A stretch of 64,000 bases of DNA from Escherichia coli (GCF_044324785.1 NZ_CP172127.1), one strand, 5' to 3'; shown: positions 24,984 to 60,539, counted from the stretch's first letter. Notes: a model not told the origin generated them from the sequence alone. A program made the numbers and translations.

Positions 24984-25880
24984 GTGAAACAGGATCTGGC
25001 ACGCATCGAGCAGTTTCTTGATGCTCTGTGGCTGGAAAAAAATCTGGCTGAAAATACGTTGAACGCTTACCGTCGCGATCTGTCAATGATGGTGGAGTGG
25101 TTGCATCACCGCGGGTTGACGCTGGCGACGGTGCAAAGTGACGATTTGCAGGCATTACTGGCAGAAAGGCTGGAGGGCGGGTATAAAGCCACCAGCTCAG
25201 CGCGTTTGCTGAGTGCAGTGCGTCGATTGTTCCAGTATCTTTATCGCGAAAAGTTTCGTGAAGACGATCCCAGTGCGCATCTCGCTTCACCGAAATTGCC
25301 ACAGCGTTTGCCAAAAGATTTAAGCGAAGCGCAGGTCGAACGTTTATTACAGGCACCATTAATTGATCAGCCACTGGAGCTACGCGATAAAGCCATGCTT
25401 GAAGTGTTGTATGCTACAGGGCTGCGTGTCTCTGAACTGGTCGGGCTGACAATGAGTGATATCAGCCTGCGTCAGGGCGTAGTGCGGGTCATTGGTAAAG
25501 GCAACAAAGAGCGCCTGGTACCGTTAGGTGAAGAGGCGGTTTACTGGCTGGAAACGTATCTCGAGCATGGGCGACCGTGGTTGTTGAACGGTGTCTCTAT
25601 TGATGTGTTGTTCCCCAGCCAGCGTGCGCAGCAGATGACGCGACAGACCTTCTGGCACCGCATTAAACATTATGCCGTGCTGGCGGGTATCGACAGCGAA
25701 AAGCTGTCACCGCATGTGTTGCGTCACGCTTTTGCCACTCACTTATTAAATCATGGTGCGGATTTACGCGTGGTGCAGATGCTACTGGGCCACAGCGATC
25801 TCTCCACCACGCAAATTTATACGCATGTCGCTACCGAGCGTCTGCGGCAACTTCATCAACAGCATCACCCGCGGGCGTGA
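24984..25880 (+). CDS. xerD: site-specific tyrosine recombinase XerD, 298 aa
   Basis: GTG start; C-terminal catalytic region HVLRHAFATHLL...LLGHSDLSTTQIYTH. Confidence 0.9.
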   Translation: MKQDLARIEQFLDALWLEKNLAENTLNAYRRDLSMMVEWLHHRGLTLATVQSDDLQALLAERLEGGYKATSSARLLSAVRRLFQYLYREKFREDDPSAHLASPKLPQRLPKDLSEAQVERLLQAPLIDQPLELRDKAMLEVLYATGLRVSELVGLTMSDISLRQGVVRVIGKGNKERLVPLGEEAVYWLETYLEHGRPWLLNGVSIDVLFPSQRAQQMTRQTFWHRIKHYAVLAGIDSEKLSPHVLRHAFATHLLNHGADLRVVQMLLGHSDLSTTQIYTHVATERLRQLHQQHHPRA

Positions 25881-31910: not shown

Positions 31911-33359
31911 TTATTCTCCATGCTCATTTTTCTTCAGCTTGCGCATCAGAAGCCACATACGTACTGTCCTGACTTTTAAATCTTTATCAGAGACGGATTC
32001 CTTCACCAGATCAGCATGATGCTGATAGCCATTAAAGAAGACGTTCAGCACAACGGCGCTAAGGGTTGCGAGCATAATGCCGCTATGCAGCAACGGTTGC
32101 AGTACGGCCGGTAACTTAGAAAAGAAATCGTGAGAGAGCGTCGGAGTCATGCCAACGCCGAGACTGATCGCTACAATATAGAGGTTGTAACGGTTAGTGG
32201 TGTAGTTACAGCGCGACAGAATTCGAATCCCTGTCGCCAGTACCATGCCGAACATCACCAGCCCAGCGCCGCCCAGCACAAATTGCGGAATGGAGGCGAC
32301 CAGCACCGCCATTTTTGGCACCATGCCAAACAGGATTAATATAATTCCCGAAGAAATACACACCCAGCGGCTATGAACGCGCGTCACGCTAACCAGGCCA
32401 ACGTTTTGTGAAAATGACGTGTGGGGGAAGCTGTTAAACGTTCCGCCTATCATTGTTCCTACGCCATCGACACGCAGCCCGCGAATAATATCGTGTGAAG
32501 AGAGTTTACGACCGACTATTTCACCCAGTGCCAGGAACATCCCCATCGACTCGATAAACACGATGATTAACACGGCAGTCATGGTCAGAATGGAAACGGG
32601 ATCGAAAATCGGCATACCAAATGACATCGGCGTGACAATCGCAAACCATGAAGCATCATGTAGCCCGGATAAATTGACTTCATTCATCATCCACGAAAGT
32701 AAAAAGCCAAATACAATCCCCAGTAATACGGCGACGTTGGACATAAATCCTTTCGCATAGCGAGTAATGAGCAAGATAAAAATTAAGACGGCAAAGGAGA
32801 TCCCCAAATAAACGGGATTACCATATTGCGGATTCCCTTTACCTCCGGCGGCCCAGTCAATACCCACCTGAATGATGCTAAGTCCGATAGAAGTAATAAC
32901 CACACCGGTAACCAGTGGCGGGAATAAAGGCATCAAGCGACCGATAAGTGGCGCTAATAATGTGGTGATAAAACCCGCGGCGATAGTGGCACCAAATATC
33001 CCCAGCAGGCCGATATCCGGGTTCATCCCAATGGCTATCATTGGTGTTACAGCGGCGAAGGTCACCGACATAATCACCGGCAGGCGGATCCCCATAAAGC
33101 GGCCGATACCGATACATTGCAATAATGTGACGATTCCGCAGCAAAAGAGATCCGAGCTAATGAGCATCGCAATAGCTTCTTTTGAGAGGCCCAGTCGGTC
33201 ACCAATCATAAGAGGAACAGCGACTGCACCTGCGTACATGACAAGGACGTGTTGCAGACCGAGTATGATCAGCTTTCCTGGTGATAATATGCGGTCAACC
33301 TCATCAGTTGGGCGGTCTTGCCCTGAAGATGAGGAAAGTTGGGAATCTATGGCGCTCAT
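31911..33359 (-). CDS. uacT: NCS2-family uric acid permease, 482 aa
   Basis: ORF 31911..33488 trimmed to ATG with AGGAGA RBS (MSAIDSQLSSSSGQDRPTDE); ~12 hydrophobic segments. Confidence 0.85.
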   Translation of the reverse strand: MSAIDSQLSSSSGQDRPTDEVDRILSPGKLIILGLQHVLVMYAGAVAVPLMIGDRLGLSKEAIAMLISSDLFCCGIVTLLQCIGIGRFMGIRLPVIMSVTFAAVTPMIAIGMNPDIGLLGIFGATIAAGFITTLLAPLIGRLMPLFPPLVTGVVITSIGLSIIQVGIDWAAGGKGNPQYGNPVYLGISFAVLIFILLITRYAKGFMSNVAVLLGIVFGFLLSWMMNEVNLSGLHDASWFAIVTPMSFGMPIFDPVSILTMTAVLIIVFIESMGMFLALGEIVGRKLSSHDIIRGLRVDGVGTMIGGTFNSFPHTSFSQNVGLVSVTRVHSRWVCISSGIILILFGMVPKMAVLVASIPQFVLGGAGLVMFGMVLATGIRILSRCNYTTNRYNLYIVAISLGVGMTPTLSHDFFSKLPAVLQPLLHSGIMLATLSAVVLNVFFNGYQHHADLVKESVSDKDLKVRTVRMWLLMRKLKKNEHGE

Positions 33360-33428
33360 CAGTGTTTCTCCTTTCGCCCGCCAGAGTAAAAAGCAACCGT
33401 TTACGTTAATGAAACTGTCTAAACACAT

Positions 33429-33443
33429 GCTCGTGGAGTGCCA
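33429..33443 (-). promoter_or_regulatory. candidate sigma54 promoter upstream of uacT (TGGCAC-N5-GAGCA)
   Basis: Minus-strand CTGGCACTCCACGAGCA read by eye; GG and GC at correct 10-bp spacing; ~70 nt upstream of uacT ATG. Confidence 0.35.
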
Positions 33444-33794
33444 GTTTTTGCGAGGAAGGGGAGTTAGAGACAGGAATTGCGGAGGCAATCACATAATCGT
33501 GGTTAAACCACGAAAATGAGAAGAGAACCTGACAATGGAATTATCTGTAATTTTCTCATATTGATATTTCATTAATCATTCTGGCATGTCGCACTCTCGC
33601 TTTTAATCGTTTTTATCTGGATAGCGCTCTTTTGGTCGGCAATGTTGAAATAATGAAAGCGGCACAGATTGAGGGGCAATAATTTGAACTCAGTCGCAAA
33701 ATTATAATTAAAACGGTCATGCTACCTAATATATGCCCGTTTATTGCATCGCGAAATTTGAGAAGACATAACTCATTAAATGAAAGGGATGCAA

Positions 33795-35714
33795 ATGAAT
33801 AAGTTTATCGCTGCTGAAGCTGCGGAATGTATAGGCTGTCATGCTTGTGAAATTGCCTGTGCGGTGGCACATAATCAAGAAAACTGGCCGCTGAGTCACA
33901 GTGACTTTCGACCGCGTATCCACGTTGTAGGGAAAGGCCAGGCTGCGAATCCGGTGGCCTGCCATCACTGCAACAATGCTCCTTGCGTTACGGCTTGTCC
34001 GGTTAATGCTCTGACTTTCCAGCCCGATAGCGTACAACTGGACGAGCAAAAATGTATTGGTTGTAAAAGATGCGCAATCGCTTGCCCCTTTGGCGTCGTT
34101 GAGATGGTCGATACGATTGCGCAGAAATGCGACCTTTGTAACCAGCGCAGTTCCGGCACGCAAGCCTGTATTGAAGTCTGCCCAACACAGGCGTTACGGC
34201 TGATGGACGATAAAGGGTTGCAGCAGATAAAGGTGGCCCGCCAGCGCAAAACGGCAGCAGGAAAAGCGTCATCAGACGCTCAGCCATCTCGCAGTGCAGC
34301 GTTGCTCCCCGTTAACTCGCGTAAAGGCGCAGATAAAATTTCAGCGAGTGAACGGAAAACCCACTTTGGCGAAATTTATTGCGGGCTGGATCCACAACAA
34401 GCGACTTTTGAGAGTGACCGCTGTGTTTATTGCGCCGAAAAAGCTAACTGCAACTGGCATTGCCCGCTGCATAACGCTATTCCGGATTACATCCGTCTGG
34501 TGCAGGAAGGAAAGATTATTGAAGCGGCAGAACTTTGCCACCAGACCAGTTCCTTGCCAGAAATCTGCGGCAGAGTTTGCCCACAGGACCGTCTTTGTGA
34601 AGGCGCATGTACTTTGAAAGATCACTCTGGCGCAGTCTCTATCGGGAATCTGGAACGCTACATCACCGATACCGCGCTGGCGATGGGCTGGCGTCCCGAT
34701 GTCAGCAAAGTTGTTCCCCGTAGCGAAAAAGTGGCGGTGATTGGCGCAGGGCCTGCAGGGTTAGGGTGTGCTGATATTCTGGCGCGCGCAGGAGTTCAGG
34801 TTGATGTCTTTGATCGCCATCCAGAAATTGGCGGTATGCTGACTTTTGGCATACCTCCTTTCAAACTCGATAAAACGGTATTAAGCCAGCGGCGAGAGAT
34901 ATTCACCGCAATGGGAATCGACTTTCATCTTAACTGTGAAATTGGCCGCGATATTACCTTTAGCGATTTAACTTCTGAATATGATGCAGTTTTCATCGGC
35001 GTGGGGACTTACGGGATGATGCGAGCAGATCTGCCGCATGAAGATGCGCCCGGTGTCATTCAGGCTCTACCGTTCCTGACTGCCCATACCCGCCAGCTCA
35101 TGGGGTTGCCGGAGTCTGAAGAGTATCCGCTGACGGATGTGGAAGGTAAGCGAGTCGTGGTATTGGGCGGTGGCGATACGACCATGGATTGTTTGCGGAC
35201 TTCCATCCGCCTCAATGCCGCCAGCGTGACCTGCGCGTATCGTCGTGATGAAGTCAGTATGCCGGGCTCGCGCAAAGAGGTGGTCAATGCGCGCGAGGAA
35301 GGTGTTGAGTTTCAGTTCAATGTTCAGCCGCAATATATCGCTTGTGACGAAGATGGGCGTTTAACTGCGGTGGGCCTGATTCGTACAGCCATGGGTGAGC
35401 CGGGGCCGGATGGTCGCCGTCGTCCTCGTCCGGTAGCGGGTTCAGAATTTGAATTGCCCGCCGATGTTCTGATTATGGCCTTTGGTTTCCAGGCGCATGC
35501 CATGCCGTGGTTGCAGGGCAGCGGAATTAAACTCGATAAATGGGGCCTGATTCAAACCGGTGACGTTGGGTATTTACCTACCCAGACGCATCTGAAAAAA
35601 GTCTTTGCTGGTGGTGATGCAGTTCATGGCGCGGATCTGGTTGTCACTGCAATGGCCGCAGGAAGGCAGGCGGCGCGCGATATGTTAACTCTGTTTGATA
35701 CGAAGGCATCGTGA
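33795..35714 (+). CDS. ygfT: AegA-like oxidoreductase: N-terminal 4x[4Fe-4S] ferredoxin domain fused to GltD-like FAD/NAD(P) domain, 639 aa
   Basis: Four CxxCxxCxxxCP motifs; dinucleotide fingerprint [21 protein letters not shown]; start at third ATG of ORF 33780..35714. Confidence 0.85.
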
Positions 35715-44236: not shown

Positions 44237-45565
44237 TTATGCCAACGCATCCATCCGACGCCACATACTGGCAGCGGCTTTTCTGGCTTGCGCATAAATG
44301 GAATCGCAATCGAAGTTAAACTGACGGTCTTCATAGACCATCACGCCATTGACCATCACGCTATGAACGCTGCCTGAGCCCATACCGAAAGCGATATGCC
44401 CGGCGATATTGTCTGCCAGCAGCGGTGTCGGCGAGTTGTAATCGCAAATGGTTAAATCGGCTTTGTAACCGGCTTCCAGAAGGCCAAATTTCGCGCCAAA
44501 GTTGCGGCTCATCAGTTCGTTGCCGTTAGCCAGTGCTTTGGCAAAACTGTCAGGCCACAGCGGACCACCCGCATCGCGATGTTTAAAGAAGGCAAATTTC
44601 ATCTCTTCAAACATGTCCGAACCAATGCCGTCCGTTCCCAACGCCAGATTGCGGATGTCGCTAAGGTGATGGTTGTAGCCGACATGGTTGTTCATGTTTG
44701 AACGGGCGTTATGCACCAGGAACGCATCGCGCTGATTGAGTAGGGCGATGTCATCTTTCGACAAGTACAGCCCATGAGCGACCAGCGTTTTGCTGTCGAT
44801 GAGATCGAATTGCGCCAGTCGTGCCAGCAGGTCTTTGCCGTACCAGTGGTGACTGTAGGAAACGTCATAAAGGTCTTCCGCAGCGTGAATATGCAAACCA
44901 CGACCTGTGGCTTTCACGGCTTCACGCAGCATCTCCAGACCGGCATCCGGCACGGTAAACGGCGCGTGAGCGCCGATATGTGCTTCCACCAGATACGGCT
45001 CGGTTGCTGCTTTCTTCGCCTCATCAATCTGACGGGCGAAGCGGATGTTTTCTTCTACACCTTCCTGCAACTCTTTGATGCCGTTGTTACGGTCAGTAGT
45101 TTCAAAACAGGTCATCGCGCGCAGGCCAACTTTTAAAAATGCGTTGCGCAATGTGGAGAGCGACCCGCCGATATACGCCGGAGAGGCATGGTGATCGATA
45201 ACCGATGTACATCCGCTCTTAATTGCTTCCAGGGTACAAATCAGTCCGCTGTAATAGAGCGACTCTTCATCAAGGGCGCGATCGAGTCGCCACCAGAGAT
45301 TTTTCAGCGTTGAGATGAAATCCGGGCAGGGGGCGATGTTTGCCATAATTCCGCGGGACAGCCCCGAGTAAAAATGGTTGTGCGAGCAGACAATTCCCGG
45401 CATCACAATCCGACCATGCATCTCTTTGTAGCTGGCATCGGGGTAGCGTTGCGTCAGGGCATCGCCGATAGCGACAATCACATCATTTTCGATGGCGATA
45501 TCAACGCCTTCCTGCACTTTCGCCGGGTGTAACTGCACTGCGGTGACATTCTTCAGAATCAACAT
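44237..45565 (-). CDS. ssnA: amidohydrolase-superfamily hydrolase (chlorohydrolase/aminohydrolase-like), 442 aa
   Basis: Metal-binding HxH (VCSHNHFYSG); full ORF. Confidence 0.85.
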   Translation of the reverse strand: MLILKNVTAVQLHPAKVQEGVDIAIENDVIVAIGDALTQRYPDASYKEMHGRIVMPGIVCSHNHFYSGLSRGIMANIAPCPDFISTLKNLWWRLDRALDEESLYYSGLICTLEAIKSGCTSVIDHHASPAYIGGSLSTLRNAFLKVGLRAMTCFETTDRNNGIKELQEGVEENIRFARQIDEAKKAATEPYLVEAHIGAHAPFTVPDAGLEMLREAVKATGRGLHIHAAEDLYDVSYSHHWYGKDLLARLAQFDLIDSKTLVAHGLYLSKDDIALLNQRDAFLVHNARSNMNNHVGYNHHLSDIRNLALGTDGIGSDMFEEMKFAFFKHRDAGGPLWPDSFAKALANGNELMSRNFGAKFGLLEAGYKADLTICDYNSPTPLLADNIAGHIAFGMGSGSVHSVMVNGVMVYEDRQFNFDCDSIYAQARKAAASMWRRMDALA

Positions 45566-49668: not shown

Positions 49669-50439
49669 GTGAAAAGTATAGTTGACCCATCGGCATTATT
49701 CATTGATTTAGGCGCGCAGAAACGTCCCACTGTGATTTCTGTTGTTGGGGCTGGGGGGAAAACCAGCTTGCTTTTTTGGCTGGCAGAACTGATCCAGGCT
49801 AGCGGCAGGCGTGTGTTAATCACTACGACGACACATATGTTTATGCCAACGTCTCACTGGCCCGTGGTTTTCTGTCGTGATCCCGCCATGCTTCCTCATG
49901 CGTCTCTTACATCCCCCATTTCATTTTGTTTTCACAGCTGGAAAGCGAACCAGGGAAAAGTGCAGGGATTTATGCCAGAAGCGATTGATGCACTGGTGCA
50001 ACGACCAGAGTGTGACGTAATTCTCATTGAGGCAGATGGCTCGCGTGGAATGCCGTTAAAAGCGCCTGATGAGCACGAACCTTGCATACCCAAAAGCAGT
50101 TGCTGCGTGATTGCTGTGATGGGAGGACATATTTTGGGCGCGAAAGTGAGCACAGAAAATGTCCATCGCTGGTCGCAGTTTGCTGATATTACCGGGTTAA
50201 CACCTGATGCAACCTTGCAACTGAGCGATCTCGTTGCGCTGGTTCGCCACCCTCAGGGCGCATTTAAAAACGTACCGCAAGGTTGTCGGCGAGTCTGGTT
50301 CATTAACCGTTTTTCTCAATGTGAGAATGCGATTGCGCAAAGCGAGCTCCTTCAACCGCTGCAACAACACGACGTAGAGGCAATCTGGCTGGGCGATATA
50401 CAAGAACATCCTGCAATCGCGCGCAGATTTGTGAATTAG
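49669..50439 (+). CDS. yqeC: P-loop protein YqeC (selenium-dependent molybdenum hydroxylase accessory family), 256 aa
   Basis: GTG start; Walker-A-like VVGAGGKTSLL. Confidence 0.8.
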   Translation: MKSIVDPSALFIDLGAQKRPTVISVVGAGGKTSLLFWLAELIQASGRRVLITTTTHMFMPTSHWPVVFCRDPAMLPHASLTSPISFCFHSWKANQGKVQGFMPEAIDALVQRPECDVILIEADGSRGMPLKAPDEHEPCIPKSSCCVIAVMGGHILGAKVSTENVHRWSQFADITGLTPDATLQLSDLVALVRHPQGAFKNVPQGCRRVWFINRFSQCENAIAQSELLQPLQQHDVEAIWLGDIQEHPAIARRFVN

Positions 50440-58284: not shown

Positions 58285-58760
58285 AAAGTCCCGGTAGTGG
58301 AATGACAGGCAAAGAGGTTTATTTCACTGTGACTTGCCAAAAGTGATTGGTCTTTTCACAGCTATACCTGGGACTAACAATAACTATGCCAGAATTATCC
58401 AAGCGGCTGCAAAAGACTAATTTGACGGGTAATGTGTGGGGTTGATCACAAATTGATGCCAGCTTCTGGTTGTTTGTAAAATACGAAAACGTTTGGCTTT
58501 TTTTATCGCGTTATTTATTTGCTGCTAAGTATCAGAAATAAGATAAAGGGGCAGGTTATCCCTCGTCAGTTTGATAAACTCACCGCCGTAATTCTCATAT
58601 TGATATAGAAATGTGATATCTCTTCCATAATTTCATTAGAAAGTGATAAAAATCTTATGTTTTTATCAAAGCCAATTTCGTCTGAGTTAATATCATCATG
58701 ATCTGTGAACCATCAACGTCTTCAATGATCGACTTTTAAGTAAGTCTGGAAGGTAAAGCT

Positions 58761-60539
58761 ATGGAGCTTGCTACTACGCAGTCAGTACTGATGCAAATTC
58801 AACCGACAATTCAGCGTTTTGCCAGAATGCTTGCCAGCGTTTTGCAGCTTGAGGTTGAGATCGTTGATGAAAACTTGTGTCGCGTCGCCGGAACGGGCGC
58901 GTATGGGAAGTTTCTTGGTCGCCAGTTGAGCGGCAACTCACGCCTGCTCCGCCACGTCCTGGAAACGAAAACTGAAAAAGTTGTGACACAATCTCGCTTC
59001 GATCCCCTTTGCGAAGGTTGCGATAGTAAAGAAAATTGCCGTGAAAAAGCATTTCTGGGTACGCCTGTCATTTTACAGGATCGTTGTGTTGGGGTGATAA
59101 GTTTGATTGCCGTTACCCACGAGCAACAAGAACATATCAGTGATAATTTACGCGAATTTTCTGATTACGTTCGCCATATATCCACCATTTTTGTTTCGAA
59201 ACTTCTGGAGGATCAGGGGCCAGGAGATAACATCAGTAAAATATTCGCGACCATGATCGATAATATGGATCAGGGCGTATTAGTTGTTGATGATGAAAGT
59301 CGGGTTCAGTTTGTTAATCAGACTGCCTTAAAAACACTCGGTGTTGTGCAAAATAATATTATTGGGAAACCTATCCGTTTCAGACCATTAACATTTGAGA
59401 GTAATTTTACCCATGGACATATGCAGCATATTGTTTCGTGGGACGATAAAAGTGAATTAATCATTGGTCAATTGCATAACATTCAGGGCCGACAATTATT
59501 TTTAATGGCGTTTCACCAATCGCATACCAGTTTTTCTGTAGCAAATGCACCTGATGAACCGCATATTGAACAATTGGTTGGCGAGTGCCGTGTTATGCGG
59601 CAATTAAAACGACTCATTAGCCGTATTGCACCCAGCCCATCCAGCGTTATGGTGGTTGGTGAAAGCGGCACGGGTAAAGAAGTCGTCGCCCGTGCAATCC
59701 ATAAGTTGAGCGGAAGACGGAATAAACCTTTTATTGCTATCAACTGTGCCGCGATTCCGGAGCAGCTTCTGGAGAGCGAACTGTTCGGTTATGTTAAAGG
59801 CGCATTTACTGGCGCTTCTGCCAACGGTAAAACAGGGTTGATTCAGGCGGCGAATACGGGCACGCTGTTTCTCGATGAAATAGGTGATATGCCATTAATG
59901 TTGCAGGCTAAATTACTGCGCGCTATTGAGGCGCGTGAAATTCTGCCGATTGGTGCCAGTAGCCCAATACAAGTCGACATCCGCATCATTTCTGCAACTA
60001 ATCAGAATTTGGCCCAGTTCATTGCCGAAGGTAAATTCCGCGAAGATCTCTTCTACCGACTTAATGTTATCCCGATAACTCTTCCACCGCTGCGTGAACG
60101 TCAGGAAGATATTGAACTACTAGTGCATTACTTTTTACATCTGCATACCCGTCGTCTGGGATCGGTTTATCCTGGCATTGCTCCTGATGTCGTCGAAATA
60201 TTGCGTAAGCATCGTTGGCCCGGAAACCTGCGCGAGTTAAGCAATTTGATGGAATATCTGGTTAACGTTGTTCCTTCAGGTGAAGTTATCGATAGCACGC
60301 TATTGCCGCCAAATCTGCTGAATAATGGCACAACGGAACAAAGTGATGTAACAGAGGTCAGCGAGGCGCACCTCGCACTCGATGATGCGGGCGGCACGGC
60401 GCTGGAGGAGATGGAAAAGCAAATGATCCGCGAGGCGCTTTCACGTCATAACAGCAAGAAGCAAGTTGCTGATGAACTGGGCATCGGCATTGCTACGCTC
60501 TATCGCAAGATTAAAAAATATGAGTTGTTAAACACATAA
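58761..60539 (+). CDS. ygeV: sigma54-dependent transcriptional activator (bEBP) with N-terminal sensor domain, 592 aa
   Basis: Walker A GESGTGKE, sigma54-contact GAFTGA, C-terminal HTH IGIATLYRKIKKY. Confidence 0.9.
   Translation: MELATTQSVLMQIQPTIQRFARMLASVLQLEVEIVDENLCRVAGTGAYGKFLGRQLSGNSRLLRHVLETKTEKVVTQSRFDPLCEGCDSKENCREKAFLGTPVILQDRCVGVISLIAVTHEQQEHISDNLREFSDYVRHISTIFVSKLLEDQGPGDNISKIFATMIDNMDQGVLVVDDESRVQFVNQTALKTLGVVQNNIIGKPIRFRPLTFESNFTHGHMQHIVSWDDKSELIIGQLHNIQGRQLFLMAFHQSHTSFSVANAPDEPHIEQLVGECRVMRQLKRLISRIAPSPSSVMVVGESGTGKEVVARAIHKLSGRRNKPFIAINCAAIPEQLLESELFGYVKGAFTGASANGKTGLIQAANTGTLFLDEIGDMPLMLQAKLLRAIEAREILPIGASSPIQVDIRIISATNQNLAQFIAEGKFREDLFYRLNVIPITLPPLRERQEDIELLVHYFLHLHTRRLGSVYPGIAPDVVEILRKHRWPGNLRELSNLMEYLVNVVPSGEVIDSTLLPPNLLNNGTTEQSDVTEVSEAHLALDDAGGTALEEMEKQMIREALSRHNSKKQVADELGIGIATLYRKIKKYELLNT

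Follow-up and report, generated by a model that had tools for sequence, protein, structure and literature searches.

The uacT-ygfT intergenic region

The uacT product imports urate, and YgeV-linked neighbouring genes encode anaerobic urate and purine degradation, which has been studied for its effect on host urate. We asked from which promoter uacT is transcribed and which regulators might act on it. The window (the whole stretch of E. coli DNA that was analysed, 64,000 nucleotides) is chromosomal, comes from a strain other than K-12 itself and is oriented so that its minus strand corresponds to the plus strand of K-12. Three genes are relevant:

31911..33359, minus strand: uacT coding sequence (for a urate/H+ symporter), downstream of the candidate promoter
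33795 (annotated start), plus strand: ygfT, divergent from uacT
58761..60539, plus strand: ygeV, gene for a bacterial enhancer-binding protein (bEBP), the proposed activator

An initial annotation of this DNA had described a sigma-54-like sequence and a 15-bp palindrome upstream of uacT. As the uacT ATG is at 33359 and ygfT starts at 33795, both elements fall inside the 435-bp region between the two genes. The 551 bases around the uacT upstream elements were identical (100%) to those of E. coli strain 18KM2445 and were present in 5330 of 5426 complete E. coli genomes. Two strains with altered loci were encountered. In E. coli NRZ94505 (L085, locus 336-531) an IS1A lies directly downstream of the palindrome region and disrupts the uacT promoter region, and the annotation of E. 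coli Eco_24-2013 lists uacT as a pseudogene containing an internal stop.

No Rfam family matched the E. coli uacT leader or the intergenic region, and a riboswitch or leader explanation for E. coli uacT was therefore dropped. A consensus scan of positions 33300-33850 likewise returned no sigma-70-like promoter in the intergenic region.

A sigma-54-like core with an off-consensus -12 block

The sigma-54-like sequence was readily located, with GG at -24, GC at -12 and the correct GG-N10-GC spacing:

33428..33444, minus strand: sigma-54-like core CTGGCACTCCACGAGCA, with a perfect -24 block (CTGGCAC) and a -12 block that reads GAGCA, not TTGCA

As had been noted, CTGGCACTCCACGAGCA reads from 33444 to 33428 on the minus strand, with 69 nt separating its 3' end from the ATG (33359). 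Transcription from this core is predicted to start at about 33417, which corresponds to about 3031309 in NC_000913.3, giving a leader of 58 nt. The predicted leader includes ACGTAAACGGTTGCTT (33391-33406, minus strand; +12 to +27), which matches what we take to be the PurR consensus at 13 of 16 positions. E. coli, E. albertii and Citrobacter R56 share this sequence without change, and more distant orthologues lack it; no link between PurR and uacT was found in the literature.

The core was scored with a sigma-54 weight matrix built from the 135 high-stringency ChIP-seq sites of Bonocora et al. 2015 (PMC4591121). Here the sigma-54 call failed: the uacT core scored 5.17 bits, below every one of the 135 validated sites when these were scored by leave-one-out (minimum 5.24, median 13.8). 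The entire deficit stems from the G and A that replace T and T at -15 and -14, which cost 2.7 and 4.7 bits, respectively. Changing GA to TT would lift the core to 16.1 bits. An A at -14 occurs in only 1 of the 135 validated sites.

Taken by itself, such a score would fit a functionless chance match, as it lies in the noise (197 window positions reach at least 5 bits) and the pattern TGGCAC-N7-GCA is not significantly enriched, being found 3 times in the window against 0.9 expected, with at least 3 occurrences in 6 of 100 shuffles. The two other matches to this pattern are TGGCACGCATCGAGCA (24997-25012, plus strand), a GAGCA variant in the 5' end of xerD with a matrix score of 9.2, and CTGGCACGACTGGCGCA (44811-44827, minus strand), which lies in ssnA upstream of ygfM and scores 10.6. 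Neither site appears in the published sigma-54 ChIP-seq lists. A direct repeat (D1) that overlaps the core, consisting of CCACGAGCATGTGTTT (33436-33421) and CCACGATTATGTGATT (33502-33487), was also considered. We judged it to be due to chance, since other genera do not keep the ATGTG that follows the -12 element.

Conservation of the core among enterobacteria

Regions upstream of uacT were compared using species genomes and contigs that encode more distant uacT orthologues. The sequence CTGGCAY-N5-[AG]AGCAT was present upstream of uacT in 11 enterobacterial taxa, namely E. coli, E. albertii, Citrobacter sp. R56, Pseudocitrobacter, Serratia oryzae, Kluyvera genomosp. 1, Raoultella, Pluralibacter gergoviae and three further orthologues with 78-85% protein identity. 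CTGGCA, AGCAT and the GG-N10-GC spacing were invariant in all of them. When four lineages were aligned without gaps, 11 of 20 columns were invariant in the core, compared with 5 of 33 in the upstream spacer and 1 of 40 downstream. Of 5315 E. coli genomes, 5138 had an identical 43-mer around the core. The chance interpretation is contradicted by this conservation: the core is kept invariant across 11 taxa whose flanking sequences have diverged and, as described below, has a fixed spacing to another conserved site. We consider it extremely improbable.

The -12 block of the 11 taxa was always GAGCA or AAGCA and never the canonical TTGCA; thus, the A at -14 is itself conserved. Matrix scores of the orthologous cores ranged from 4.4 to 9.1 bits. 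Two loci contributed little to this comparison. The Trabulsiella sequence (L003) contains Ns in the relevant stretch together with a shortened spacer and was uninformative for the core, and in Erwinia sp. CGal63 (L090) uacT directly follows another gene, with zero intergenic region.

Conservation indicates function and not its kind, and the CTGGCAY...AGCAT block might be an operator for another transcription factor in place of a promoter. It contains GCAY/GCAT direct repeats 11 bp apart, as could be bound, for example, by a winged-helix response regulator, and sigma-54 prefers a base other than the A that is invariant at -14. An operator would nevertheless have to retain all seven consensus bases of a -24 element (CTGGCAC) and the exact GG-N10-GC spacing, downstream of an enhancer-like dyad and amid a cluster of sigma-54 promoters, and it would leave uacT with no other promoter. 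We therefore regard this explanation as very unlikely.

Orthologues of uacT from Morganella, Hafnia and Edwardsiella were found without the sigma-54 module. Right before the start codon, they carry a different leader consisting of TCGAATCGTAGCC, a hairpin of variable sequence and GCCGTAAGGAG (L007 1030-1125, L008 2890-3003, L009 2842-2956 and L010 2890-3003). This leader had no Rfam match. Its consensus fold is weak (four sequences), with compensatory changes in 3 pairs, and the leader may represent an undescribed cis-regulatory RNA. In Serratia oryzae, a SECIS_2 selenocysteine insertion element (85.7 bits) was detected downstream of uacT (L004 4913-4967), which fits the selenium-dependent enzymes of the urate/purine pathway.

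CRP-like sites at a fixed distance from the core

CRP-like sites were found upstream of uacT and of other promoters in the cluster:

33478..33493, minus strand: CRP-like site TGTGATTGCCTCCGCA of uacT, TGTGA-N6-nCnCA, centred at -68.5 from the predicted uacT start
33683..33698, plus strand: CRP-like site TTTGAACTCAGTCGCA of the ygfT promoter, centred at -68.5 from the ygfT sigma-54 start
xdhA promoter: CRP-like site centred at -67.5
ygeW promoter: CRP-like site centred at -77.5
ygfK promoter: CRP-like site centred at -97.5, perfect consensus

The uacT site has 2 mismatches to TGTGA-N6-TCACA, and the window holds 33 sequences of this quality against 28 expected; taken alone, the match is not significant. 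Its position is constant among species. The site starts 48-49 nt upstream of CTGGCA in 11 of 11 taxa, which places its centre at -67.5 or -68.5, and its TGTGA is kept across all of them. The 32-33 nt between the site and the core cannot be aligned between genera, and the spacing is nonetheless fixed. For ygfT, the corresponding site is at -67.5 in Citrobacter, Trabulsiella and Serratia oryzae.

A conserved CRP-like site upstream of a conserved block is also what a CRP-dependent sigma-70 promoter would have, with [AG]AGCAT serving as a weak -10 element and the TGTGA site acting in the class I manner. RAGCAT keeps the two most important -10 positions (A2 and T6) in 11 of 11 taxa, and published data are without sigma-54 occupancy at the core. 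Such a promoter, however, would place the CRP-like centre near -66, in between the canonical class I positions of -61.5 and -72.5. It would lack a conserved -35 hexamer and leave the invariant CTGGCA in its spacer unexplained, and the consensus scan revealed nothing sigma-70-like. In addition, the sigma-54 promoters of xdhA and ygfT have their CRP-like sites at the same distance. A sigma-70 promoter at this position is therefore quite unlikely in our assessment.

A dyad shared with other promoters of the cluster

Further upstream of uacT, two elements were distinguished:

33554..33566: dyad TATCAATATGAGA, TATCA-N3-TGAGA, candidate YgeV enhancer, centred at -143 from uacT and -199 from ygfT
33574..33586, minus strand: TGCCAGAATGATT, possibly another, weaker dyad, 20 bp further upstream, with the conserved block CAGAATGATT

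The first dyad, as T[AC]TCA-N3-TGAGA, was found near -140 in 10 of 11 taxa (at -143 or -140 where computed), taking the form TCTCA-N3-TGAGA in Serratia, Kluyvera, Raoultella and others; in Pluralibacter its centre is at -176. The 13-mer TATCAATATGAGA occurs twice in the window, against about 0.002 copies expected by chance. The second copy, identical at 13 of 13 positions, is at 58593-58605, upstream of the ChIP-validated ygeW sigma-54 promoter (58392-58376). A near-copy, ACTCATATTGATA, lies upstream of xdhA at -131, and a variant, TTATCATTATGATAA, upstream of ygfK. Assignment of the dyad as an IHF site was rejected, as the E. coli sequence fits only partly (TATCAA, no TTR) and those of other genera fail (TCTCAT). 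Within the second block, AATGATT is kept in 9 of 11 module-bearing taxa and in Trabulsiella; judging from the sequence, TGCCAGAATGATT is possibly a second dyad.

One locus of the comparison, L088, lacks a divergent ygfT; all three elements (dyad, CRP-like site and core) are nevertheless retained in front of uacT. The module therefore belongs to uacT. A gene for a 593-aa enhancer-binding protein (sigma-54 activator) adjoins uacT at this locus.

YgeV contains a PAS domain, a sigma-54 AAA+ domain carrying GAFTGA and an HTH_8 domain. It was the only sigma-54 AAA+ protein found in the 64-kb window, in agreement with the earlier description of YgeV as its sole bEBP. YgeV is thus a plausible partner of the uacT promoter, as had been proposed, but its most likely binding site is the conserved dyad at 33554-33566 and not the palindrome to which it had been assigned.

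The 15-bp palindrome is specific to E. coli

The palindrome itself is present as described:

33498..33512: palindrome CGTGGTTAAACCACG, CGTGGTT-N-AACCACG, perfect 7-N1-7, with its centre near -88, flanked by the dyad and the CRP-like site

Both its dyad symmetry and its distance (-88) would suit an enhancer. Perfect 7-N1-7 palindromes are frequent in this DNA, with 12 in the window against 3.8 in mononucleotide shuffles, and spacers of 0-4 yield 39 palindromes in the window. The palindrome was absent in all 10 non-E. coli orthologues, including those of E. albertii and Citrobacter. A search of the window allowing up to 3 mismatches gave no further copy beyond one chance-level match, and none is present in the regions upstream of ygeW, ygfK and xdhA. 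Among E. coli genomes, the 43-mer around the palindrome was identical in 4125 of 5311 (78%), so that 22% of genomes differed in the palindrome region compared with 3% in the promoter core. One arm is altered by a C-to-G change in 502 genomes, and a different arm variant occurs in 21.

As the palindrome is absent in orthologues, polymorphic within E. coli and does not recur at ygeW, ygfK or xdhA, it is not a conserved enhancer, and the role first suggested for it had to be abandoned. It is specific to E. coli and lies outside the conserved promoter machinery. Cross-species conservation adds significance to the core motif and none to the palindrome.

The perfect symmetry of CGTGGTTTAACCACG, its placement between the enhancer-like dyad and the CRP-like site and its identity in 78% of E. 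coli genomes would also be compatible with an E. coli-specific operator that is not the YgeV enhancer and that modulates looping between dyad and promoter. Its core, TGGT-N3-ACCA, presumably resembles GntR/FadR-type half-sites; we know of no GntR-type regulator linked to the uacT locus. This role is unlikely for an element that is missing from every other species, has broken arms in 502 and 21 genomes, is more polymorphic than the core, is one of 12 palindromes of the same geometry in the window and has no second copy there.

Other sigma-54 promoters of the cluster

The divergent gene has a published sigma-54 site in the same intergenic region:

33732..33748, plus strand: ygfT sigma-54 site TATGCCCGTTTATTGCA, poor -24, perfect -12, 36 nt upstream of ygfT

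This site is about 300 bp from the uacT core and scores 6.69 bits on the sigma-54 matrix. The ygfT arm mirrors that of uacT, with a CRP-like site at -68.5, a perfect -12 and a broken -24 (TATGCCC). Since the uacT core is off-consensus at -12 and the ygfT core is broken at -24, each divergent arm consists of one good and one poor sigma-54 half. Departures from the consensus were seen at four promoters of the cluster:

ygfT: poor -24
ygeW: GT for GC at -12
yqeC-internal: AG for GG at -24
uacT: GA for TT at -15/-14

As each of these deviates, degenerate cores are the rule in this cluster. They do not preclude activity: the yqeC-internal site (PSSM 6.8, TGAGCAC at -24) has been proven to be required for yqeB expression (PMC4591121). 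The xdhA promoter is marked as experimentally confirmed in EcoCyc (PMC4591121 Table 1). The yqeC-internal promoter (50070-50086, plus strand, in yqeC) also has a CRP-like site, TGTGACGTAATTCTCA (50011-50026), centred at -78.5. A perfect dyad, TCTCAATGTGAGA (50314-50326), is located about 220 nt downstream of its start, which suggests that this promoter has a downstream enhancer of the same dyad type.

Published occupancy and expression data

The sigma-54 ChIP-seq study contains one weak peak in the uacT-ygfT region, OS32 (centre 3029005 in U00096.2; FAT, fold-above-threshold, 3; PSSM 4.5), which was assigned to TATGCCCGTTTATTGCA (PMC4591121). Near the uacT core (about 3029312, U00096.2), neither the high- nor the low-stringency list has a peak, and none of the eight supplementary files mentions uacT/ygfU (PMC4591121). 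The cells had been grown on glycerol (PMC4591121), and CRP (cAMP-CRP) should therefore have been active. In the RpoN genomic SELEX study, ygeV/ygeW are listed and the uacT-ygfT spacer is without a peak. Sigma-54 occupancy correlates poorly with promoter function (Bonocora et al., PMC4591121).

Expression data connect uacT with YgeV. The YgeV iModulon comprises 13 genes and includes uacT, ygfT, xdhABC, ygeWXY, hyuA, ygfK, ssnA, ygfM and xdhD, and ygfT expression is reportedly lower in a ygeV mutant. Further, ygeV is one of the genes implicated in anaerobic, formate-dependent urate consumption by E. coli. Glucose represses urate degradation, and a native Crp site has been described between ygeV and ygeW. 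Nothing in the searchable literature ties rpoN, sigma-54, ygeV or crp experimentally to uacT/ygfU. The sigma-54 promoter of uacT, the dyad and the -68 rule have not been previously reported in that literature.

The original claim of a sigma-54 promoter therefore stands in part. The weight matrix, ChIP-seq and genomic SELEX speak against it, and conservation in 11 taxa, the fixed spacing to the CRP-like site, the shared dyad and the YgeV iModulon lend it indirect support. Based on its sequence, the uacT core is a probable, hitherto unreported, weak sigma-54 promoter.

Proposed model for uacT transcription

The explanation that we favour, with moderate confidence, is that a weak, non-canonical sigma-54 promoter, activated by YgeV from the shared dyad and with the CRP-like site in between, drives uacT transcription. 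Transcription would start near 33417 from a core with a perfect CTGGCAC at -24 and GAGCA at -12, and this promoter would form one arm of a divergent control region common to ygfT. YgeV would bind, most probably, the dyad at 33554-33566, loop to the promoter and drive open-complex formation. The CRP-like site at -68 would probably place uacT under cAMP-dependent catabolite control, through DNA bending or through assistance in recruiting a poorly binding holoenzyme. Closed complexes at a core defective in its -12 region would be unstable, which would account for the missing ChIP signal.

Compared with the known sigma-54 promoters of the cluster (xdhA, ygeW, ygfK, ygfT and yqeC-internal; PMC4591121), uacT shares the gene cluster and an upstream dyad. 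It also shares the CRP-like distance of about -68 with xdhA and ygfT, and a degenerate core with ygfT, ygeW and the yqeC-internal promoter. It differs in being undetected by ChIP-seq or genomic SELEX and in the position of its defect, which is in the -12 region (A at -14). The defects of the ygfT and yqeC-internal promoters are at -24, and ygeW has GT for GC at -12.

The divergent E. coli pairs hycA/hypA and zraP/zraS (PMC4591121 Table 1) each have one enhancer region common to both promoters. As proposed for uacT and ygfT, these genes have back-to-back sigma-54 promoters and a central activator region, for FhlA and ZraR, respectively. In contrast to those pairs, uacT/ygfT has a longer spacer (about 340 bp between starts), a CRP-like site in each arm and two cores that are both far from consensus.

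Weakly binding sigma-54 promoters include Klebsiella pneumoniae nifH (CCCTGCA at -12) and Pseudomonas putida Pu. Closed complexes at such promoters are expected to be poor, and their activity to rely heavily on an upstream activator together with a bending or recruiting protein; in nifH and Pu, the architectural factor is IHF and T is kept at -14. The uacT core resembles them in being non-consensus just upstream of the GC. It differs in that the conserved intervening site is CRP-like and not an IHF site, and in having A and not T at -14.

A broader proposal, which we put forward only tentatively and hold to be doubtful, is that the YgeV regulon uses a distinct, conserved promoter design. Its sigma-54 cores would be crippled (an invariant A at -14 in uacT, a broken -24 in ygfT) and too weak for detection by ChIP-seq. 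To become competent, they would need CRP-cAMP, bound at exactly -68, to recruit the polymerase or position it for the YgeV enhancer. If this were true, CRP would be an obligatory co-activator of sigma-54 promoters, as opposed to its documented repressive role, and catalogues based on ChIP and weight matrices would systematically miss a class of real sigma-54 promoters.

For the cluster as a whole, the analysis provides three candidate cis-elements: a dyad that YgeV may bind, a CRP-like site at a fixed -68 and off-consensus sigma-54 cores. It would add the urate transporter gene, on sequence grounds, to the YgeV-linked sigma-54 regulon, with uacT as one more promoter of a known regulon that has an unusual conserved -12 variant. 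A conserved promoter of this kind, missed by sigma-54 ChIP-seq, SELEX and weight-matrix scans, would bear on how complete the present catalogues of sigma-54 promoters are.
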